Shown: in pieces, positions 11,562 to 44,809 of the stretch | Numbering within the stretch: the stretch's first letter is position 1 | Layout of the letters: each line of letters starts with the position of its first letter | IMG/VR virus record: IMGVR_UViG_3300022660_000043 | Strand: one strand, 5' to 3' | DNA length: 64,000 nt | From: a virus | Lineage: Duplodnaviria > Caudoviricetes | Notes under the pieces: model-generated | What the model was told of the DNA's origin: nothing | Databases searched by the model: none | Seen by the model: the letters and a program-made list of their open reading frames with translations, nothing else | Made by a program: the position numbers and the translations under genes

Positions 11562-11851
11562 GGTCCAACTGTTTTTAGTAAATATCTGATAATTTGAAAA
11601 GAAATAAGTATGGACTCTATGTAAAAACGGCTTAGCTGTTAACTGTATTGGTTAGCGGGACGTTTAACCCGCTCATAATTAATTCTAGAAATAAGCATAA
11701 GCTCTACAAAGTTTTTTAAATTTAGGCCTGACTACTATGTATACCTACTATTCATCTAGAAAAGAAATAAGTACAGGCTCTGTTATAATAAATTGGCCAA
11801 ACTGCTACTTTTAAAATCCCAAATTTTATGTAAGAAATAAGTATTGGCTCT
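11562..11851 (-). ncRNA. Tandem array of 4 short bulged-stem RNAs (family A, Y-RNA-like)
   Basis: Units 11562-11618, 11629-11705, 11725-11781, 11795-11851. Each reads AGAG-N4-U-RCU-UAUUUCU...AGY-N4'-CC with compensatory changes; promoter at 11857-11866. Confidence 0.8.
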
Positions 11852-12454: not shown

Positions 12455-13343
12455 AAGAAGGTTAAAAGACTGAGAATACATCTTCATAATTGCTACGGCT
12501 TAATGACCTTATTGATTAGTCACTTTTCCACTTCCTTTTGGGAAGTACCGCTCATGCCTGCAATTCGTCACCCCAGCACAAGGGCTCCAGGCTTGCTTTC
12601 GCCTTTACAGAAACAATTACTCGATTATCACTCCACTATCAACCTTGCGGGCTGTTCGAGGTTGCTACGCCTCTATAGATTCGTTTCAATCAAATACCAA
12701 ATGCTTGTGACACTTGATATCCCAGATTGCTTACCACTCTGGGCTTAAGACACTTTTCTTTGTTTCCAACAATAGGTTTTTACTCATGACATTGTTTTCC
12801 TATGACAACCGCTCTGCCTACTGAGCTACCGGCGTATAAAAGAGATAAGTGCTAATTATCTCTATAGATAAAATTGGCACGCCGGGTGGGACTCGAACCC
12901 ACGCTAAGTTGAGATTTGACAGAAGACAGACTATTGTTGTAGTTCTCACACCTTTTGAGTGCAAGAATGCTACCCGCCTTCAACACTTTCCTTGGCTTCG
13001 TACTCGTATTTCTTATACCCACCGTAGCAGATATAAATGGAAGTCGCCCTTGCTTGCTAAAACTTGAACTATTTTACTTCCTGTAGCTTACCTTACCTCA
13101 TCAAATCCTTTTGCGTTGAAACCAGCTCCTTGCGAGAGCGAAAATAGTTCAGTCAGTTGACCCTACAACTATTTTCTTTTCATTTCATCATTGACAAGTT
13201 AGAACATGGGGTTAGCATATTCGTAAGAATCTTTTCAATTCTTACAGGTCCCGTCACACATTGCCTGAGGTACTGTTCATCACAGCGGAGTCTTGTCAGT
13301 ATACTCCTTTCATTCCCTTACGGGAAGTTATCGGTCAGGCCCG
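12455..13343 (-). ncRNA. Large structured ncRNA, GOLLD-like, containing a circularly permuted tRNA domain
   Basis: About 890 nt with no credible ORF, starting just after the promoter at 13352. Many GNRA/CAAAAGG hairpins and a 3' ...GUAUUCUCAG end resembling GOLLD as recalled; lies in a tRNA array. Confidence 0.55.
12807..12912 (-). ncRNA. Circularly permuted tRNA-like domain
   Basis: T-arm + CCGGCGU-GCCA (12875-12903) precedes ACGCCGG + D-arm (12811-12835); hairpin spacer between them. Confidence 0.8.
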
Positions 13344-26743: not shown

Positions 26744-26830
26744 TGGTGCCCCTGACCGGAATCGAACCGGTACGGCCTTGCGGCCAACGGATTTTAAGTC
26801 CGTTGCGTCTGCCAGTTCCGCCACAGGGGC
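26744..26830 (-). tRNA. trnL: tRNA-Leu(UAA)
   Basis: ACGGA-CTTAAAA-TCCGT, variable arm. Confidence 0.95.
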
Positions 26831-26840
26831 ATATTAAATT

Positions 26841-26948
26841 ATACCTGCTCGGGAGTCGAACACCGAATCTCCTCCTTTGAAGGGAGGGGCTCTGTCCCTT
26901 AAATTGACGTGTAAAACCATCCAGGATTTGCCGTTAAGCTAACAGGAC
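26841..26948 (-). ncRNA. tRNA-like RNA with UCA anticodon and about 36-nt D-loop insertion
   Basis: CCTCC-CTTCAAA-GGAGG; GCTTAACGG[insert]CAGAGC; imperfect acceptor stem, no CCA. Confidence 0.65.
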
Positions 26949-26956
26949 TTTTATTA

Positions 26957-27073
26957 AGACCAAGCTAAATGAAAGCTGGAGCTCTCCCATCTGAGCTACA
27001 TCCCAAAGCGGAATGACGGGGCTCGAACCCGTGACCACCAGCTGGAATAATCAAAGAAATAAGCATTGGTTCT
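26957..27073 (-). ncRNA. Family A RNA with permuted tRNA domain (YrlA-like)
   Basis: AGAACCAAUGCUUAUUUCUU...T-arm, loop-closed acceptor, D-arm...AGCUUGGUCU. Confidence 0.85.
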
Positions 27074-27091
27074 AGTATATTATACAATAGA

Positions 27092-27700
27092 TTAACAAGA
27101 AATTTGACTTAAATTTGTAATTGTTCGATCAAGTTTTTCTTGAGTCCACCAACCATAGGTGTCTAAAATATCAAGATTAGCCTTAAGCTCATACAGCTTA
27201 TCGAGAATGGCCTGTTTCTGCTCTTCTGTGATATGTCCAACACGATGAACTAACCTAGTACGCTCAACTGACACGATTGAAGCAGTATTAAAAGAGCTAG
27301 GAAATCTTAAATTACAAGCAGTATGATTAGGAACCTCTACAAGATAATCTAGAAGCGAAGCAGGATGGCTAGTAGTTAACTGAAAACCATAAACTCTAAA
27401 AGCATTCGCATAAATAACAAGAAGTGGACGACGAATATGATCTAAGTTAATGTTTCTACCATACTGAAAAAGATCTGCAACAAGAATATCACCACGCTGA
27501 AACTCTACTAAGTCTGTTCCATAATCTTCTGTTATATCAGCAAAAGGTAAGTCTTGATACTCAACTTCTTCTTGCCACCCAAGATTAGGGTCGAGATCAA
27601 GTGCATCAGCAAAAGGAGAAGGTTTTAAATCCTCATACAAAGAACTTAAAACATCAAACACATTATCTTCTTCACAGATATAAAAACCGTCCTCTCTCAT
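27092..27700 (-). CDS. PemK/MazF-like endoribonuclease with acidic N-terminal extension
   Basis: FQRGDILVADL...RRPLLVI...QLTT...IVSVERTRL..RVGHI; start reassigned to the ATG after AGGAG. Confidence 0.75.
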   Translation of the reverse strand: MREDGFYICEEDNVFDVLSSLYEDLKPSPFADALDLDPNLGWQEEVEYQDLPFADITEDYGTDLVEFQRGDILVADLFQYGRNINLDHIRRPLLVIYANAFRVYGFQLTTSHPASLLDYLVEVPNHTACNLRFPSSFNTASIVSVERTRLVHRVGHITEEQKQAILDKLYELKANLDILDTYGWWTQEKLDRTITNLSQISC

Positions 27701-27721
27701 CATAACTCCTCTAAATAAAAC

Positions 27722-27865
27722 GGCCAAGCTAATATATACGTTGCTCTACCACTGAGCTACAATCCACGAGTATTGGCCTTATTCAGGCAGTGCCTCCATC
27801 GGAAAGGTAGGACTCGAACCTACGACCTACGGCTTAGCAGGCATTAAGAAATAAGCATTGGCTCT
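27722..27865 (-). ncRNA. Family A RNA with permuted tRNA domain (YrlA-like), enlarged acceptor loop
   Basis: AGAGCCAAUGCUUAUUUCUU...GUAGGUUCGAGUCCUAC...GCUCAGUGGUAGAGC...AGCUUGGCC. Confidence 0.85.
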
Positions 27866-27896
27866 GTATTATATTATACGATATAAATAACTTAGA

Positions 27897-28199
27897 TTAA
27901 GCGTATTTTACAATAATTCTGAAAATATTTTTCTGTTCACTAAGTGCGGCGACAAGGTCTCTAAGGCGTTTATACTTAGTGCCACACCAATAAAGCTCTC
28001 CTTGTTTATTACGATATTCCCTATCTACAAAAGCCATCAATTCAATACAGTCAGGATATTCATCAAAAGTAAACTCTTCGAACTCTACACTAAATTTAAG
28101 TACCTCTTTGTGTGTTTGCAAAAATCTATCTACCAAGGAATCCCTTGCCCAACTGTTATCAAAGTTCTTATGAACAATCATCTTGTCAGAATAAATCAT
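27897..28199 (-). CDS. Hypothetical protein
   Basis: 100 aa, preceded by TGCTAAATTA motif. Confidence 0.7.
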   Translation of the reverse strand: MIYSDKMIVHKNFDNSWARDSLVDRFLQTHKEVLKFSVEFEEFTFDEYPDCIELMAFVDREYRNKQGELYWCGTKYKRLRDLVAALSEQKNIFRIIVKYA

Positions 28200-28270
28200 A
28201 AAACTACCTTTAATATATAATTTAGCAGAAATTTAAGGGCGTAGCATAAAACTACACCCTTATTTTGTTT

Positions 28271-30244
28271 TTAGGCGTTAACCAGAGTAGAAAGCTTCTC
28301 TACATCGAAGGAACGAATTACGATCTGCTCTCTGGTAGAACCGTCTTCTGCCTCAGGAAGATTCTTAACCTTAGAAACATAGTCATTTGCAAAGACAATA
28401 TCTGCCTCCTCAGGAGTCTCAACTAGTTCACCACGCCAAGAAGCGATCAAGCCCATGTTAAGCTCAAGCTTAGAAGCATCGAGATACTGAGCCATTACCT
28501 GAAGCTCACGACCGGTAACAACTCGAGAGTCATCATCAGTCATAAGATTAAGGACAATAATCTCATTAGTCTCAAAGTCGATTGCAAAGCCAACGTAAGC
28601 GCGCTTTTCACCCTTGACGTGCATCTTAAGCTCGATATTCTTAGGATCCCAAGCACGAGTCATAAGATCAGTCTTCTGCTGATAGCCACAGTAAATCTCA
28701 CCCTCATTGAGAGTAGAACGGAAACCATGGAAAGTAAAGATCAGCTTGCTTGCACCAAGATGGCGCATTGCACCAAGACGAATATCATAGTACTCAGTAC
28801 CGTCACGCGAGGTGTTATCACCAGAGAACAGCAGAGCATTGCCAAAACGCTTGTTGCTATAGTTACACCAGTTAACAGTAGTCATGATATTGTTATCCTT
28901 ATCGAGAACGATAACAGAAGAGTCAATATCAAACGCATTCTCCCAATGTACGAAAGTACGGATATTATCGGCAGTAATAGGCAGACGAGTACCAGTAGGA
29001 ACAATGTCAATGCCACGACCGCTTGCAGAAGTGTTTACAGGCATAGCAACCTTATAGAAGTCAGGATGTACGTAAACCTTACCCAGAGACTCAAGGGCAC
29101 GGTAGTGACCTTCGATCTTTGCAAGGCAAGTATCATGTACAAGCTTCTTGGTAGCATCGTTGAGGCGAGACTTACGCCAACGAGCCTCATACTCAGTCTC
29201 AACGTGTGCCTTTACACGATTCTTTGCATAGAAGGAGAAAGTACGAGCCTCCTCCGAGTCTGCCATAACGGTAGACATAAGCTGATAAAGAACAATAGGA
29301 TTCTTATCAGAAAGCATATCAAGAATCTTTACTGCCTCTACAGGGTTTGCACGAGAAAGCAGGAACTTAAGGTTACGCTCAAGCAGAGAACCACTCTTAG
29401 CAAATACTTCAGCGGCTCCAAGAATGTCACCATTCTTGAGCTTCTCAGTAGCAATACGATTAGGGGACTGAGCGTTAGTAGTAGGCTTTATATTACGCAC
29501 CTTAGTAAGCTGAACAAGCTTGTTGTAGAACTTTGCCTGCTTCTTAGACATAGGACAATCCTTAACAAGAAGAATAGCCTTACGAATAAGCTCCTTGGTG
29601 TCAGGATCAAGAGTAAGCTCCTTCTTCTCACCGCAGCGAGCAATAGAAAGCTTTACAAGATCCTTCTTATACAGGAAGCGAGCAAAATTGATATCGCGCT
29701 CCATCATAAACACAGCGTTATCACCACAAGCTACATCGTAGTTGTTGTAGTAACCAAGGTTATAGAGCTCTACGAACTCTACCTGCTCATCAAGGCCCCA
29801 AGGACGCTTATAGCCACAGTAGTCCTTAGCGATATCACAGAGAACTACATTTGCCTCATCTACATCGAGGATCTTAAACTCACGAAGCTTGATATCGGAA
29901 CCAACCTCATACTCAGGGAGCTGCTTATCGAATACCTTTACGTGAGAATCATCTGCGCCGTAAGCGAAGAAATAAGACAGAACCTGCTCAATAAAGAGCT
30001 CATCACGAGTGTAATAGCTCATATCCTGAGGATTCTTAAAATAAGACGCAGGAACCTCAAGACGATATTCGTCAGAAATAGCCTTAACGTGGCCCTTGGT
30101 GAGCAGCTCAGGCTTATCCACAACAATACCAAAGTTTGCAAACAAGAAAGCATTAAGGTAGGCCTGCTCCACCTTAGTACCAGCCTCAACAGGCTCTGCC
30201 TGCAGATAACGACGAGAAATGAGAATCTTAGAAATATTCTTAAT
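28271..30244 (-). CDS. Large helical protein with C-terminal TerD-like domain (candidate TROVE/Ro-like RNP subunit); probable AUU start
   Basis: IRTFVHW..DIDSS...FSGD...TEYYDI TerD-like motifs; strongly biased codons; GGAGG 5 nt before in-frame ATT. Confidence 0.75.
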   Translation of the reverse strand: MKNISKILISRRYLQAEPVEAGTKVEQAYLNAFLFANFGIVVDKPELLTKGHVKAISDEYRLEVPASYFKNPQDMSYYTRDELFIEQVLSYFFAYGADDSHVKVFDKQLPEYEVGSDIKLREFKILDVDEANVVLCDIAKDYCGYKRPWGLDEQVEFVELYNLGYYNNYDVACGDNAVFMMERDINFARFLYKKDLVKLSIARCGEKKELTLDPDTKELIRKAILLVKDCPMSKKQAKFYNKLVQLTKVRNIKPTTNAQSPNRIATEKLKNGDILGAAEVFAKSGSLLERNLKFLLSRANPVEAVKILDMLSDKNPIVLYQLMSTVMADSEEARTFSFYAKNRVKAHVETEYEARWRKSRLNDATKKLVHDTCLAKIEGHYRALESLGKVYVHPDFYKVAMPVNTSASGRGIDIVPTGTRLPITADNIRTFVHWENAFDIDSSVIVLDKDNNIMTTVNWCNYSNKRFGNALLFSGDNTSRDGTEYYDIRLGAMRHLGASKLIFTFHGFRSTLNEGEIYCGYQQKTDLMTRAWDPKNIELKMHVKGEKRAYVGFAIDFETNEIIVLNLMTDDDSRVVTGRELQVMAQYLDASKLELNMGLIASWRGELVETPEEADIVFANDYVSKVKNLPEAEDGSTREQIVIRSFDVEKLSTLVNA

Positions 30245-30326
30245 ACCTACCTCCAAAAAAAATTAAAGTGATTTATTTTTAGATACCTACCCCTACCAAA
30301 ATAAACCACTTGATTGTTTTTATTTT

Positions 30327-30383
30327 GGCCTAACTATAAATAAAATTTTTGCAGAATTTTGTTAAGAAATAAGTATAGGCTCT
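30327..30383 (-). ncRNA. Family A short RNA in the leader of the TerD-domain gene
   Basis: AGAGCCUAUACUUAUUUCUU...AGUUAGGCC. Confidence 0.8.
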
Positions 30384-30647: not shown

Positions 30648-31589
30648 TTAATGTGCATTTACATCTGCTTCATGAATAGTATCAATATACCACTTCCAAT
30701 GAGAATCAAGCTTCTGATAATAACCTGAATTAAAGAAAGGCTCCATGTGCGTTGAGATAATCCAGCTTATAAGACAAATATCAGACATCTCTACATCACG
30801 TATCAAATGGTCAGGATCTAAGAACAAACCATATGCTAAGTAGCCACCGACACAGTGATGATCATAATAATGCGCAACATCTTCACCAGGCTTAAAGAAT
30901 TTAGTATAAGGCTTTCCAATATCATGCCAATAAGCTGCCTTAGCAAGCTTGTTATAAGCTGAATACTCTATTATATCAGTAGTAGCTGCGCCCTTATCAA
31001 TAATATTAACATGAGCCTGCATACAATGTTCCCAAATGCCTAACGTATGATGTGGATTGTCATGGGAGATATGTAGGTCTGAAGCTTTAGAAGCAACATA
31101 CTTAACCTGATCAAAGTCGTACTGATTTAGATGAACTTCAATCTTATCAAAGCCTTCATCAAGCCAAGGGCTTTGCCAGCGACGAAGCATCTTATCAATT
31201 ACGGCAGGACCTACCTTACGATCTCTAAAGCTGTCACGACGAATACACTCTTCAGGCTCTGCCCACACTATATGGCACTCTACAGTATCATGAGTGGGAT
31301 GAGCACATGCTATAGCTGACTTACGTGCCTTTCTGGTAACGTTAGTAGCATCATAAATGACAGTCTTATCTGCTCTAAGGTCTTCAATAGTGCGCTGTCT
31401 CATGAGCTCAAAAACTCTGCCATTATCTTCCTGAGAACCTGCATCCCCAAAAAGCTCTTCTCTGATAGCATCAGACGAATGAATTACAGTAACGCCAGTG
31501 CAGATAGCATCATCAACAGCCTTAAACTGCTCCGCATAATAACTCTTACCACTTCCAGGTAAGCCGACTAAAACAATCAATCTTCCCAC
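30648..31589 (-). CDS. Polynucleotide kinase (AAA_33) - HD phosphohydrolase fusion
   Basis: GLPGSGKS P-loop, SSDAIR, YDATN; HH..WEH, HDIGK, H..HM..D HD motifs. Confidence 0.88.
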   Translation of the reverse strand: MGRLIVLVGLPGSGKSYYAEQFKAVDDAICTGVTVIHSSDAIREELFGDAGSQEDNGRVFELMRQRTIEDLRADKTVIYDATNVTRKARKSAIACAHPTHDTVECHIVWAEPEECIRRDSFRDRKVGPAVIDKMLRRWQSPWLDEGFDKIEVHLNQYDFDQVKYVASKASDLHISHDNPHHTLGIWEHCMQAHVNIIDKGAATTDIIEYSAYNKLAKAAYWHDIGKPYTKFFKPGEDVAHYYDHHCVGGYLAYGLFLDPDHLIRDVEMSDICLISWIISTHMEPFFNSGYYQKLDSHWKWYIDTIHEADVNAH

Positions 31590-37340: not shown

Positions 37341-38318
37341 TTAATTTTTAGAGCTATTTTTAAAAACTTTAGTAATGTTGTCAGCTGTAAAATCTTCTTT
37401 GTTCAGAATACGAACAGGTCGACCATATTGATAGGTGCCAGGCAAAGGAATTCCAGGAATTTGAGAGCCATTTACGATACACTCAAATTTCTCTACACCT
37501 TTCTCATCAATATAAGGCATACAACCATCCATAGTAATAGCCTTCCAATAAATACCCTGCATATCCTCACAGAAATGATGCGGATTACCATGAATAGCTC
37601 TTGTTTTGACTAGAATATGATAGCCACCTGAGGTATCAATAATTAAGTAATTACCCAAACCAAATCTTTGGTTAAGGCTGTCAAGCATCTGACTATAATA
37701 GCCTTGGTACCCACAGGCATGATCCTTAAACCACGGCGGAACATCGAGATCAAAGTCAAGCCAATAAACTGAACCCTTACAATGAGCTCTTGCATGCTTT
37801 ACATTGCTTTCAATATTGCTGAAATTTTGATATGACTGCAAATTAGCGTCAAGTGTCTTACCGTTCAACATTGCTTTAACGATAGCTGTCTTAGTATCAT
37901 TAAGCTTCTGCATTACTTCATCAGCTACTTTAAGTTCATCACAAGGATTTACATAAAAGATAGTAGCAATACATTTCTCAGGAAGTGGATAGCCACCAGA
38001 AGTAAGATAAGCTCCCTTATCTACATTAAATCTCTTAAGCTTCTTTACGAAATTAGTCATGTTCCAGCCATCATCTTCGGCAAGATCGGCTGCATCATGA
38101 AACTTTCTAACTCGAAAAGTCTGAGTAGCTAAAAACTCTGCATCCTTTTTTGCAATACCTACCTCAGCTCTTTCCTCTGCAGTAAGCTTCTTAAATCTCG
38201 CTACAAAAACTGCAGCATAAGACTCATTTACTTGTGGCTTCTGAATAACGTGCTCAAAAAACCACTTGAGTTCATCTTCATCTGCAATAACTTCAAAACG
38301 ATCTAAATCTCTGATCAT
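37341..38318 (-). CDS. Possible AEP/PrimPol-like nucleotidyltransferase
   Basis: WLDFDLD (DxD) and DTSGGYH motifs. Confidence 0.5.
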   Translation of the reverse strand: MIRDLDRFEVIADEDELKWFFEHVIQKPQVNESYAAVFVARFKKLTAEERAEVGIAKKDAEFLATQTFRVRKFHDAADLAEDDGWNMTNFVKKLKRFNVDKGAYLTSGGYPLPEKCIATIFYVNPCDELKVADEVMQKLNDTKTAIVKAMLNGKTLDANLQSYQNFSNIESNVKHARAHCKGSVYWLDFDLDVPPWFKDHACGYQGYYSQMLDSLNQRFGLGNYLIIDTSGGYHILVKTRAIHGNPHHFCEDMQGIYWKAITMDGCMPYIDEKGVEKFECIVNGSQIPGIPLPGTYQYGRPVRILNKEDFTADNITKVFKNSSKN

Positions 38319-39019
38319 CGTATATCCTCCAAAAGCTCCCAGTCCATAAATAAGAAGTGCATCTTATCATGGTGTTTGTTTGTATGCCAATGTCCACAGA
38401 ACCAAGCCTTATAATCAAGTTTATCTTCAATCTCATCAAGCCAACGCTCTGTGCTATCGTCTACCTTAGACTGGTCAATACCAGAAATGAACTCCTCAAC
38501 AGGCTCATACTTAAACGGACAAGTATGCGAGAATACCGCATCTACCTTATAATTTATACTATCAAGTTTTTCGGCGACATTTGCTTTAATAGCCTCAGAA
38601 GGCTGTTCACTCTCAAACCAAGCATAACCACTTGCCAAACGATAATATTTATCTACACTATAGGCACCACCAAGAACGAGGCACTGTTTGCCGGCAAGAG
38701 TATAAACTTGGCCATCAATCGCAAACAGAAGCTTTGGATACTGTGGCTGTCTATATACTAGACCACCACCCCAAAGCATAATCTCGTACCCAGCTACATT
38801 CTGAGGTCGTTCCTCGTGATTACCATGAATACAAAGAATAGTAGCTTCAATATATTTATCCAAAGCTTCTTTTAGCCGATCATCTTTTTTATTAAGATAA
38901 TAATTTGCACCGACATCTCCGAGAAGCACAATAATATCATCTTTAGTTACACCAAGTTGCTGGGCTCTATAAATCAAGAACTCAGGATTTCCATGAATAT
39001 CTCCAGTAATATATACCAT
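38315..39019 (-). CDS. Calcineurin-like metallophosphoesterase
   Basis: GDIHG, LGD, GNHE, SHTCP, GHWH. Confidence 0.92.
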   Translation of the reverse strand: MVYITGDIHGNPEFLIYRAQQLGVTKDDIIVLLGDVGANYYLNKKDDRLKEALDKYIEATILCIHGNHEERPQNVAGYEIMLWGGGLVYRQPQYPKLLFAIDGQVYTLAGKQCLVLGGAYSVDKYYRLASGYAWFESEQPSEAIKANVAEKLDSINYKVDAVFSHTCPFKYEPVEEFISGIDQSKVDDSTERWLDEIEDKLDYKAWFCGHWHTNKHHDKMHFLFMDWELLEDIR

Positions 39020-39081
39020 AATAAACCTCCGATACAGTTCTAATATATTATACAACAGGCAAAAAAGAAAAGTTGCGTATT

Positions 39082-39285
39082 TCAGCAACTTTCTTTCTGC
39101 TTTTCTTCCAAAGCTTTATCGATCATATCCCTAATTTCTAATAAGCGTTCTGCAGGGCAATCTAATACTAATTCAAAGTTTTTTGGTACGGCTATTAAAT
39201 CAACACCAACCTTATTTTGAATTACTTTAAACAGCTTCATAAGGTTTTCTTTTGGTAGAGAATCATCATAGTACAGAATGTTCAT
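39082..39285 (-). CDS. Hypothetical protein
   Basis: 67-aa coupled ORF. Confidence 0.6.
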   Translation of the reverse strand: MNILYYDDSLPKENLMKLFKVIQNKVGVDLIAVPKNFELVLDCPAERLLEIRDMIDKALEEKQKESC

Positions 39286-40242: not shown

Positions 40243-41052
40243 TTAGCTCTCCTTGGGAAGAAATCTCTCAATATAGTTTCGGTCCTGTGTAAAAATAGGA
40301 CATTCTTTATCAATATACCACTCAGATCGTGCTGCTCCATTACGCTCTACAGATCTCTTATAGCAACAAACACCACGCTTAAACTCAATAGGCATATCAT
40401 TGAAATTAATACCCTTCTGCCACAACATCTCCTGAATATCTGAAGTAGACTTCTTGTGCAGCTCCTTATGACTAAAGTGTGTTTGTCCAAGCATCTGAAT
40501 GGCATTACGAGTAGCATCTTCTTGCCTCCAGATATACACGTTACAAACTTCTGAGGTAGGAATGCTGAAGCAGCGAGCATCAAACATTGCACCCTTATCC
40601 TTGGCCTTCAGCAGTTCAATAGAATAGTTATCAAGAGTTTTGCCGGCAGTATACTCATTAACATAAGTTCTGAAAGCCTTATTGAAGTGCAAGGTAGCCA
40701 TAGAAGCAGCAATAGAGCACATCTTTTGCACACCGTATCCAAACCAAGCATCAGTATTAATAGTGTCGTAATCAGTCAACAGAAGTGAAATTTCGTCGCT
40801 CTGTGTATATCCAAACTTACAACCCTGGATATTTTTACAAAGATACTGCAAGGTAGAATTCATTGCCTTATGGAAAACCTCGTCATAAGGCTTTTGAAAA
40901 TTCTTACAAAATGAATGAAAACATTTGCCGTCGATTCGAATCACCACAGGAAGCCTTCTGGTAAGATAAGTCTTAGCTCTATTTTCATAATTATTTTTCA
41001 TTCTATCGCCGAGCGAATCTTTTTTATTTGCCATAACATAATTGCCTTTCAT
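40243..41052 (-). CDS. thg1: tRNA-His guanylyltransferase / Thg1-like 3'-5' polymerase
   Basis: RIDGKCFHSF, YTQSDEISL, FDAR, WRQEDATRN, KRG motifs. Confidence 0.95.
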   Translation of the reverse strand: MKGNYVMANKKDSLGDRMKNNYENRAKTYLTRRLPVVIRIDGKCFHSFCKNFQKPYDEVFHKAMNSTLQYLCKNIQGCKFGYTQSDEISLLLTDYDTINTDAWFGYGVQKMCSIAASMATLHFNKAFRTYVNEYTAGKTLDNYSIELLKAKDKGAMFDARCFSIPTSEVCNVYIWRQEDATRNAIQMLGQTHFSHKELHKKSTSDIQEMLWQKGINFNDMPIEFKRGVCCYKRSVERNGAARSEWYIDKECPIFTQDRNYIERFLPKES

Positions 41053-42239: not shown

Positions 42240-43658
42240 TTACATCTCCGCAAGGACATCCTCTGCTACGTCAGCAGTAGACTCGGCAAGCTTCTCGCCA
42301 ATAATTCCCTCAAGAACCTTGAAAGAGAAATTTTTATGCTTGAAAGCAGCAAACTTAGGACGGTTTACGATACGTACCACTACACCCTCACGAGTATGGG
42401 TCTTGCCAACAGGATCAGGACCATCGAAGTAGTCCTCAGCGCAACGCATAATCATATCTCCAAGCTCACCATCGCCAATAAGGTAATCATGATCATAGCC
42501 ATTAGGTGCAGTGAAATGAAGTCTATCCTCAGAAAGAGTAGCCTTACCAAATACAAGAACAGTCTTTACACCCATCTGCTCACAACGGTAACGCATGAAG
42601 TCAGGAGTATACTCTACAACCTCTCCGTCCTCGTTAGTCATAGTCATACGATATACGTAGATATCTGACTGAGGCAGTGCATTTTCAACACCAATTTGGT
42701 TATGCTCTTCATCAAGATAATACCCAACACCATTAGGAGCACAGCCATAGGAGAACACAGTCTCCTTACCATACTGCTTTACAAAGTCTTTACCAAGCTT
42801 CTCGTTATTACCATTACCCATGATAGGTGCTCCAGTGTGAGTAAAGCCTACGACCTCGTAATAAACAGTCTCACCCTTCCAAAGCTTTCCTACAAAAGTA
42901 TCATGATGCTGCTTACGGAACTCATTAGAGCCATAGAAGCCGCCATCAAAAGTATCGAGTACTACACGACGAGTACCAGATACATAGCCCCAGTCATATA
43001 CAGGCTTACCAGGTCTATGAAGAATACGATCCATAATAGATCTCTTATAACCAGTAAGTACCTTCAAATGGCCAGTACGCTGGGAAGTACCATGCATCTT
43101 AAGAGAAAGCTCAAGCTCATCGCCAACCTTGAAAGCTCCAAGATTATACGCAAGCTGCTCAGTATCTGCATGCTCTGCAAAGGTAGGTGCAATAGGTGCC
43201 TTAAACTTACGAGTATGATTACCCTCAGATACATGACCTCTACGTGCCTGAGTACGAGGGATGTACTTAGTGCAAATCTCCTCACCATTAAATACATCAA
43301 TACGGTCTCCTACTCTAAGGGTAGAGATATCACCAAAAGACTCAAGACAATGGAGAGGAAGGAAAAGACCATCAGACTTCTCGCCTCTAAGCTTAATAGC
43401 AGTTACATTTCTCTTATCAGGATCCATGTAGCCACCAATATTATTGCCATCAGCATCCTTCTTTCTAAGAAGGTTATTAGCCTCAGCAAACTTCACAGAA
43501 AGCTGGCCACCGGTAGGGAAATATACACCAAGTTGGCCCTCAGTATAATCAAGAGATACGCAAACAGTGTTACCGAACACATCAGCAAGCTGCAAACGAT
43601 CTGCATTAGGATGCTTTCTAACATCCTTCAAAGTAGTTACAATAGCATAATAACTCAT
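42240..43658 (-). CDS. ATP-dependent RNA ligase with N-terminal tRNA-binding OB fold (DRB0094-like)
   Basis: HPNADRL, KLRGEKSDG, KMHGTS (motif I), YYEVVG, EGVVVR, FKHKN. Confidence 0.88.
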   Translation of the reverse strand: MSYYAIVTTLKDVRKHPNADRLQLADVFGNTVCVSLDYTEGQLGVYFPTGGQLSVKFAEANNLLRKKDADGNNIGGYMDPDKRNVTAIKLRGEKSDGLFLPLHCLESFGDISTLRVGDRIDVFNGEEICTKYIPRTQARRGHVSEGNHTRKFKAPIAPTFAEHADTEQLAYNLGAFKVGDELELSLKMHGTSQRTGHLKVLTGYKRSIMDRILHRPGKPVYDWGYVSGTRRVVLDTFDGGFYGSNEFRKQHHDTFVGKLWKGETVYYEVVGFTHTGAPIMGNGNNEKLGKDFVKQYGKETVFSYGCAPNGVGYYLDEEHNQIGVENALPQSDIYVYRMTMTNEDGEVVEYTPDFMRYRCEQMGVKTVLVFGKATLSEDRLHFTAPNGYDHDYLIGDGELGDMIMRCAEDYFDGPDPVGKTHTREGVVVRIVNRPKFAAFKHKNFSFKVLEGIIGEKLAESTADVAEDVLAEM

Positions 43659-44748: not shown

Positions 44749-44809
44749 GGGGTCATTATGAGATTTGAACTCATCAAGGCGTCCCTCGCTCACCTAAAAG
44801 CAATGACCC
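44749..44809 (-). ncRNA. Minimal tRNA-like RNA (about 60 nt)
   Basis: GGGTCATT/AATGACCC stem, T arm ATGAG-TTCAAAT-CTCAT, shrunken D and anticodon arms. Confidence 0.6.

Follow-up and report, generated by a model that had tools for sequence, protein, structure and literature searches.

A phage-encoded PemK/MazF-like protein with an acidic arm and no antitoxin gene, between two tRNA-like RNAs

Introduction

MazF toxins are usually studied as one half of bacterial toxin-antitoxin pairs. In the DNA analysed here, a stretch of 64,000 nucleotides (nt) from a virus of the Caudoviricetes (IMG/VR record IMGVR_UViG_3300022660_000043; hereafter the window), a gene for a PemK/MazF-like protein stands between two tRNA-like RNAs, which we call handle RNAs A and B. 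This raises the question of what keeps such an enzyme in check and whether the two RNAs have any part in it. A preliminary description of the locus, made from the sequence letters, had read it as promoter, RNA, PemK-like gene, promoter and RNA, and proposed a nuclease that is regulated or tethered by the RNAs or that processes them, or alternatively an acidic arm acting as a fused antitoxin. We found all elements of this layout in place on the minus strand:

27870-27880, minus strand: promoter-like motif CGTATAATATA, ending 7 nt before the first base of RNA A
27722-27864, minus strand: handle RNA A, 143 nt (Rfam YrlA below gathering score, own covariance model R1, covariation)
27092-27703, minus strand: PemK-like open reading frame (ORF), 203 amino acids (aa)
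27076-27086, minus strand: promoter-like motif TGTATAATATA, directly past the PemK stop codon and 7 nt before RNA B
26958-27072, minus strand: handle RNA B, 115 nt (Rfam YrlA below gathering score, R1, covariation)

The reading that we favour, with a probability somewhat above even, is that the protein is an accessory, phage-restricted MazF-type RNase without an antitoxin, carried as an optional cassette and regulated by its own arm, and that the RNAs are mere neighbours.

A phage-restricted MazF subfamily with a conserved catalytic pair

The PemK-like protein divides into three parts:

27509-27703, minus strand: N-terminal acidic arm, residues 1-65, net charge -17
27227-27508, minus strand: PemK/MazF catalytic core, residues 66-159 (Pfam, Foldseek, profile alignment)
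27092-27226, minus strand: C-terminal helical extension, residues 160-203 plus stop codon (AlphaFold2, AF2)

We found that the ORF matches the Pfam family PemK_toxin (PF02452) over residues 69-172 (32.5 bits against a cut-off of 23.1; E 1e-7), a match that is precomputed on most of its homologues, as well as PHROG 1936, described as 'MazF-like growth inhibitor'. In an AF2 model of the monomer, built on 22 homologues, the core has block-mean predicted local distance difference test (pLDDT) values of about 64-96, mostly above 83. When comparing this model with the PDB by Foldseek, we observe that at least the top 25 matches are all MazF/PemK toxins, including M. tuberculosis MazF-mt3 (5hk0; E 3e-6, template modelling score 0.74 on the target), with S. 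aureus MazF, MoxT and B. subtilis MazF as other leading matches. By the model and Foldseek, the core thus has the beta-barrel fold of the MazF/Kid/CcdB type. In the profile alignment (1ne8, 4mdx and 4me7), R92-P93, which is invariant in the family, falls on R25-P26 of B. subtilis MazF, and T110, kept in at least 90% of the family, falls on T48. Arg25 and Thr48 form the catalytic pair of the B. subtilis enzyme, and mutating them abolishes activity (PMC7354611). Since this pair is kept, the phage protein is likely to be active as an endoribonuclease. The PemK fold proposed in the preliminary description is borne out by these matches and by the retained Arg and Thr. The C-terminal extension of 44 aa is modelled as helices at residues 160-175, 177-180 and 188-199 (pLDDT 83-96), and it ends in a Cys (C203) that is invariant in the family alignment.

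The family comprises 66 homologue clusters of 43-98% identity and 199-220 aa, conserved end to end, and only 39 matches at E <=1e-3 were obtained among 1.84 billion representatives. We detected no PemK-like gene in the 185,579 GTDB bacterial and archaeal species genomes and none in IMG/VR, and a tblastn comparison with 50,697 phage records yielded no match in cultured phages. Judged by its sequences, this is a small phage-restricted MazF subfamily in which a canonical core is preceded by an acidic arm and followed by a helical extension. With type II MazF/PemK toxins (Kid, EndoA; 4mdx, 5hk0) it shares the Pfam family, the fold and the catalytic Arg and Thr. In contrast to them, it belongs to a small family without a MazE/PemI gene, carries the 65-aa acidic arm and the 44-aa C-terminal extension, and is encoded within an RNA-gene array of a large phage. 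As the preliminary description had stated, there is no gene for a protein antitoxin: the stretch from RNA A to the PemK ATG contains no ORF, the downstream neighbour is an RNA gene, and a 100-aa ORF nearby is unlinked to PemK.

An optional cassette within a conserved RNA module

We compared the window with five related phage records (G001-G005), two of which are at least 96% complete. The closest relative is the IMG/VR record G002 (146.5 kb, 63% complete), with which the window is syntenic in aligned blocks of 67-91% nucleotide identity; further relatives are G001 (233 kb, 100% complete) and G003 (220 kb, 96% complete). Because of the synteny with G002 and the kinship to G001 and G003, we place the window in the genome of a large uncultured phage, from a clade with genomes of roughly 150-230 kb.

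None of the five relatives contains a homologue of the PemK-like protein or any PF02452 domain. Even in G001 and G003, the two RNAs and an adjacent gene for a 661-aa protein are present and the PemK gene is absent. Compared with their copies in the PemK-less G002, RNA A of the window matches at 140 of 143 positions and RNA B at 113 of 115 (98%). The two RNAs are separated in G002 by a spacer of 20 nt with no promoter in it, in place of which the window has a block of ~650 nt with the ORF, a Shine-Dalgarno site ahead of it and, for RNA B, a promoter motif that G002 lacks. Since the relatives hold the RNAs and the 661-aa gene without PemK, the PemK gene is an optional cassette of ~650 nt in a conserved module, and its insertion into the tandem pair A-B would produce the observed sandwich. 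When contrasting PemK-positive with PemK-negative loci, we found no PemK-specific feature in RNA A. Because they are almost unchanged in relatives without the enzyme, the flanking tRNA-like RNAs are probably residents of the array and not dedicated regulators of the nuclease.

Gene contexts were read at six loci (the window and L001-L005). The PemK gene follows RNA A in the window (between A and B), L002, L003 and L005 (between A and a further handle RNA, C), precedes RNA A with its own promoter in L001, and stands among tRNAs with its own promoter in L004, where no handle RNA occurs within about 350-550 nt. It therefore adjoins a handle RNA, always RNA A, in five of the six contexts. The linkage with the RNAs expected from the preliminary description thus exists when read from gene to RNA and fails from RNA to gene, given the five PemK-less relatives. 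Identities to the window protein are 76, 73, 48, 47 and 43%, forming two groups, whereas those of the neighbouring 661-aa protein are near-uniform (63-66%); as the former do not track the latter, the sequences suggest that the PemK gene has been exchanged between these phages.

Such a pattern could also be produced by a selfish or competition module that excludes co-infecting phages or favours its own spread and has no role in the normal cycle of its carrier. The patchy distribution, the variable position and the identities at odds with those of the neighbouring 661-aa gene would all fit, as would a GIY-YIG homing endonuclease that is encoded in the same region as the PemK-like gene. Against it, no mobility gene and no target-site repeats were found at the cassette borders when the window was compared with G002, and the idea overlaps our preferred reading rather than excluding it; we assign it a low probability.

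The same relatives bear on the proposal that the nuclease processes the precursors of the phage's handle RNAs and tRNAs, or tRNA-like introns, with a kinase, a phosphatase and a ligase tidying the ends. The gene lies inside RNA-gene arrays in all six contexts, array units without a promoter must be cut from longer transcripts, and end-healing and ligase-like genes are present in the window. However, relatives with the same arrays, promoter-less units included, do without the gene, so that the nuclease is not a required processing enzyme. Furthermore, MazF enzymes cut short single-stranded motifs and not structured junctions. A processing role consequently appears to us improbable.

The flanking RNAs and their constant protein companion

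Upon examining the RNAs themselves, we find that both match the Rfam YrlA model (RF02553) over its full length, RNA A at 27714-27847 (33.7 bits, local E 5e-5) and RNA B at 26956-27055 (35.5 bits, local E 1.5e-5), with scores that are about half of the gathering score of 69 and so do not reach the threshold. In RNA A, a bulged closing stem (GAGCCAA-U-GCU / AGC-UUGG-CC, plus a conserved UAUUUCUU) encloses a permuted tRNA-like core that consists of a T-arm, an acceptor-like hairpin into which 35 nt are inserted, and a D-arm. RNA B has the closing stem GAACCAA-U-GCU / AGC-UUGG-UC and an anticodon-stem-like helix AGCUGG/CCAGCU, followed by a T-arm, a 5-bp hairpin and a D-arm. The handle consensus reads AGA(G/A)-NNNN-U-RCU-UAUUUCUU on the 5' side and AGY-N'N'N'N'-(C/U)C on the 3' side, and the two segments pair into a closing helix in which two bulges are conserved and a 4-bp box covaries freely.

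In an alignment of 16 RNA homologues from other contigs, covering four helices and 21 pairs, pairing amounts to 99%, each of the four helices shows covariation, and compensatory double changes occur in 12 of the 21 pairs, a level reached by none of 500 shuffles, and slid controls collapse. The covariance model R1 built from this alignment scores RNA A, which is outside its seed, at 95.9 bits (E 2e-18), and RNA B, which is in the seed, at 109.5 bits; besides these two, an R1 scan of the window returned nothing comparable. Single-sequence minimum free energy folds did not recover the tRNA-like fold (z -0.16 for RNA A with leader, -0.72 for RNA B). On this comparative evidence, RNAs A and B are genuine structured RNAs and YrlA-like tRNA mimics, as the preliminary description had it, with the qualification that they stay below the Rfam threshold.

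The two RNAs belong to a handle-RNA family of which the window has seven or more copies (A, B and five mini handle RNAs), one of which lies directly upstream of the 661-aa gene:

28271-30256, minus strand: gene for the 661-aa protein, N-terminal alpha repeats and C-terminal TerD fold
28234-28262: terminator-like hairpin after the 661-aa gene
30327-30382, minus strand: mini handle RNA, 56 nt, directly upstream of the 661-aa gene (R1 34 bits)
11562-11617, 11629-11704, 11725-11780 and 11795-11850, minus strand: tandem of four mini handle RNAs, adjoining tRNA-Met

All five minis (56-76 nt) have the bulged closing stem and UAUUUCUU as in A and B and a fully covarying 4-bp box, and they have no tRNA-like core. 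Dozens more mini copies are present in IMG/VR loci L006-L035. Additionally, at two IMG/VR loci (L013:657-761 and L017:125-230) the handle surrounds a normal-order cloverleaf of acceptor, D-arm, anticodon arm and T-arm; as read from these sequences, the handle can enclose either a permuted core or a normal-order cloverleaf.

The 661-aa protein is highly conserved, with more than 550 homologues and no Pfam family. Its C-terminal part is a TerD domain (fold match Z 15.5; Foldseek 2kxt), and its N-terminal helical part gives generic repeat matches only (Z 5-6). A mini handle RNA lies directly upstream of its gene in all five related records, the position being equally filled in L036-L038, and tRNA-like handle RNAs of types A, C and B lie directly downstream in four of the five (L036-L038, L040). 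The module runs from the mini handle RNA through the 661-aa gene to handle RNA A, which is followed in some cases by C, and on to B and the tRNAs. By this gene order, the constant companion of the handle RNAs is the 661-aa protein and not the nuclease, which makes it the prime candidate for their RNA-binding partner. Six pairs of PemK-like and 661-aa homologues are found on equally long longest contigs, which suggests co-location only.

YrlA RNAs consist of a stem and a permuted tRNA-like module, and RNAs of this type act as tethers in Ro60 ribonucleoproteins (RNPs) (PMC4201824). The handle RNAs resemble YrlA and the Y RNAs of Ro60 (Rsr) in their closing stem and permuted module, in the existence of small paralogues without the module, as YrlB, and in lying next to, and on the same strand as, one conserved protein gene. 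They differ in that the 5' Rsr-recognition motif of YrlA, GNCGAAN0-1G (PMC4201824), is absent and the 5' strand of the handle is instead GAG-N4-U-RCU-UAUUUCUU with a covarying N4 box, a difference in stem motif that explains why the family under-scores the Rfam YrlA model. They further differ in their sub-threshold Rfam scores and in the neighbouring protein, which has alpha repeats and TerD and no TROVE domain. We found no TROVE/Ro60 domain by Pfam among the window neighbours or in the five related records, with control genomes positive, and the 661-aa protein itself, examined as a possible hidden Ro60, gave neither a TROVE domain by Pfam nor any match to PDB sequences. The handle RNAs are therefore YrlA-like in architecture and cannot be filed as Y RNAs.

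It is conceivable, at rather long odds, that the handle RNAs are phage analogues of Y RNAs in an RNP around the 661-aa protein, into which the PemK nuclease would plug as an effector coupled by its arm or by the leader RNA A. If true, this would be an RNA-tethered, switchable MazF, a parallel to Ro60-Y RNA-PNPase built from entirely different proteins. Either way, the module of handle RNAs and 661-aa protein is a more novel object of this region than the nuclease.

The 100-aa ORF mentioned above lies between the terminator of the 661-aa gene and the RNA A promoter, where it forms a second insertion relative to G002:

27897-28199, minus strand: 100-aa ORF, no Pfam, PHROG or PADLOC match

As a candidate antitoxin it was rejected: it is absent at the other five PemK loci and is not conserved with PemK, and it is likewise missing between the 661-aa gene and RNA A or PemK in L001-L003, L005 and L036.

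Expression of the gene and the case for RNA control

In the window we count 16 instances of the TATAAT-type motif C/TGTATAATATA where 1.95 would be expected (about 8 times chance), 11 of these on the gene strand. Handle RNAs with their own promoter motif start 7 nt past it, and the same motif stands ahead of RNA A in L001-L003, L005, L036 and L038, whereas several array units have no promoter of their own. Between RNA A and the PemK ATG the window has 18 nt, which contain GGAG; across the window, L002, L003 and L005 this spacer measures 18-29 nt, with a Shine-Dalgarno site, no TATAAT motif and no terminator-like site. We infer that the PemK gene of the window, itself lacking a promoter, is transcribed by read-through from the RNA A promoter and has RNA A as its 5' leader; its expression would then be borrowed.

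This layout invites the explanation that RNA A, RNA B or both bind the PemK-like protein, either as an RNA antitoxin of type III kind or as a Y-RNA-like scaffold to a partner such as the 661-aa protein. ToxN-type toxins have a Kid/MazF-like fold. The gene stands next to RNA A in five of six contexts, in three arrangements, and would be co-transcribed with it in four. YrlA-type RNAs tether proteins in Ro60 RNPs (PMC4201824), and a Y RNA links Ro60 to PNPase. As in ToxIN, AbiQ/antiQ, CptIN and TenpIN, an RNA lies directly upstream of a putative RNase of Kid/MazF-like fold, presumably in one transcript and without a protein antitoxin.

The differences from type III systems are nonetheless extensive. 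The phage RNA is a single tRNA-like unit of 143 nt and not a tandem array of ~36-nt repeats, and Tandem Repeats Finder reports no array in 26800-28300. The terminator of type III loci has no counterpart between 27722 and 27703. The toxin is of another family, since no match to ToxN, AbiQ, CptN or TenpN was obtained, PemK_toxin being the sole Pfam match and no PADLOC model matching. RNA and toxin are not inherited as a pair, as the RNAs persist without the toxin at 98% identity in G002, and RNAs are likewise present in complete PemK-less genomes among the five relatives. In addition, RNA A carries no PemK-specific feature, and the gene in L004 has no handle RNA close by. RNA regulation or tethering, which the preliminary description had put forward, is thus not supported, and we regard control by the flanking RNAs as unlikely. 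The type III-like reading is attractive and probably wrong, the tRNA-like RNAs being a separate module.

The acidic arm as candidate internal regulator

The very acidic N-terminal extension of about 65 aa seen in the preliminary description is confirmed. Residues 1-65 contain 19 D/E and 2 K/R, and the net charge of the arm ranges from -14 to -22 across 22 homologues; distant family members likewise have an acidic N-terminal extension. Two motifs are conserved, FYICEEDNVF..L..LYE and DAPGLD..LEW, with F7, E12, D13, F16, L19, L22, Y23, E24 and L37 invariant. Because of these invariant hydrophobic and acidic positions, the alignment indicates that the arm is under selection and not a mere linker. 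It is modelled as disordered (residues 1-63 with pLDDT below 50).

Antitoxins of the MazE type have acidic, disordered toxin-binding tails, and the tail of MazE acts in trans. Because there is no antitoxin gene and because of this likeness, we see in the arm the strongest candidate for internal regulation, and by analogy a fused, putative cis-acting antitoxin is likely the better regulatory idea than control by RNA. In such a scheme the arm would do in cis what the MazE tail does in trans, covering the basic RNA-binding groove. Two Cys residues may be part of it:

27674-27676, minus strand: codon of Cys10 in the PemK-like protein
27095-27097, minus strand: codon of Cys203 in the PemK-like protein

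Nearly every close homologue has both Cys10 (within FYIC-EED) and Cys203, and distant relatives have neither. This co-occurrence may point to a contact, or to a metal site, that joins the arm to the C-terminus; paired Cys would fit an arm folding back toward the C-terminal helices, a small hint that comes from a single evolutionary event.

The same arm could alternatively serve counter-defence, with the protein acting mainly as a decoy and not as a nuclease, neutralising host MazEF through a heterodimer with host MazF or through a MazE-like arm. In charge and disorder the arm resembles antitoxin tails, and there is a precedent of phage proteins inactivating host MazF, namely AimX and YosL of phi3T, which bind and inactivate it (PMC10769878). 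On the other hand, the catalytic Arg and Thr are kept family-wide, which would be needless for a pure decoy, and upon comparing the arm alone with PDB sequences we obtained no match and no similarity to any solved antitoxin. A decoy function hence has, in our judgement, only a slim chance.

Weighing the proposed arm-regulated accessory RNase

Under the favoured reading of an accessory RNase with an internal regulator, the enzyme would cut host or competitor RNA during infection. A phage with at least 33 tRNAs of its own and enzymes for RNA end-healing and ligation could tolerate, or even profit from, damage to host RNA. Alternatively, no control would be needed at all, as a lytic phage can afford a toxin.

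Several observations weigh against this reading. The contexts come from only six loci, and contact with RNA A in five of them is odd for a neutral insertion, so that a functional tie to RNA A or its promoter is possible. The AF2 monomer leaves the arm undocked on the core and lends no structural support to inhibition in cis. Finally, on the sense strand we found no strand-specific depletion of 4-6-mers in the window relative to the syntenic region of the PemK-less G002, and hence no motif that the phage avoids.

Parallels exist for single features of the protein. T4 RegB is a sequence-specific RNase encoded by a phage without an antitoxin and used in infection; its fold is RelE/YoeB-like, and unlike the PemK-like protein it has no MazF fold, acidic arm or RNA-array context. 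EzeT and CapRel-SJ46 are single-chain toxin-antitoxin fusions of other toxin families with a cis-acting inhibitory segment, and what they would share with the phage protein is the idea of inhibition in cis, the putative role of its arm.

PemK/MazF genes have precedents as accessory genes of other phages, in PHROG 1936 and in phams of staphylococcal phages (PMC6507118). Their carriers are temperate, they show no close similarity to the family described here, and neither the arm nor the RNA context is reported there. What is new is a conserved, phage-only MazF subfamily that has no antitoxin gene and has a long acidic arm of its own. If the arm is a cis-antitoxin, the protein would be a single-chain, MazEF-like switch and a simple system for studying how a phage can deploy an RNase and remain unharmed.

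Genomic setting and further observations

All genes of the window are on the minus strand, and no close match to the window was found among the 50,697 deposited phage records. ARAGORN finds 33 tRNAs in the window, and the tRNA set of the phage is near-complete. The following genes make up an island for RNA/tRNA repair that surrounds the arrays:

30648-31589, minus strand: polynucleotide-kinase-like gene (AAA_33/KTI12)
38315-39088, minus strand: metallophosphoesterase gene
40243-41052, minus strand: Thg1-like tRNA-His guanylyltransferase gene
42240-43658, minus strand: RNA-ligase-like gene (PHA02142 OB domain)

The window contains a further RNA:

12467-12982: GOLLD RNA (Rfam)

Inside GOLLD, a sub-threshold YrlA match (33.1 bits; 12783-12929, minus strand) shows a T-arm and then a CCA-ending strand, and it is probably a tRNA-like domain embedded in that RNA. 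Directly after RNA B, a tRNA-like element with a long insert (26841-26948, minus strand) is not called by ARAGORN and is kept in L001, L036 and L038. Furthermore, minus-strand T-arm hairpins of the form GTTCRANYC occur outside the ARAGORN tRNAs near 44770, 44641, 25939, 25079, 25037, 21415, 21042, 16541 and 16475, several of them followed by CCA, as in further tRNA-like elements or interrupted tRNAs.

When scanning bacterial genomes for the handle motif, we obtained mostly coding motifs of SusD-like proteins and helicases. True handle copies occurred only on phage-like contigs of 18-175 kb binned into bacterial metagenome-assembled genomes (MAGs), among them L057 and L080 (MAG Lachnospiraceae RGIG8516, water deer cecum) and L051 and L077 (MAG Bacteroidales bin.38). 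These are probably mis-binned phage contigs, and the origins of the MAGs suggest a gut or rumen habitat, with no reliable host.

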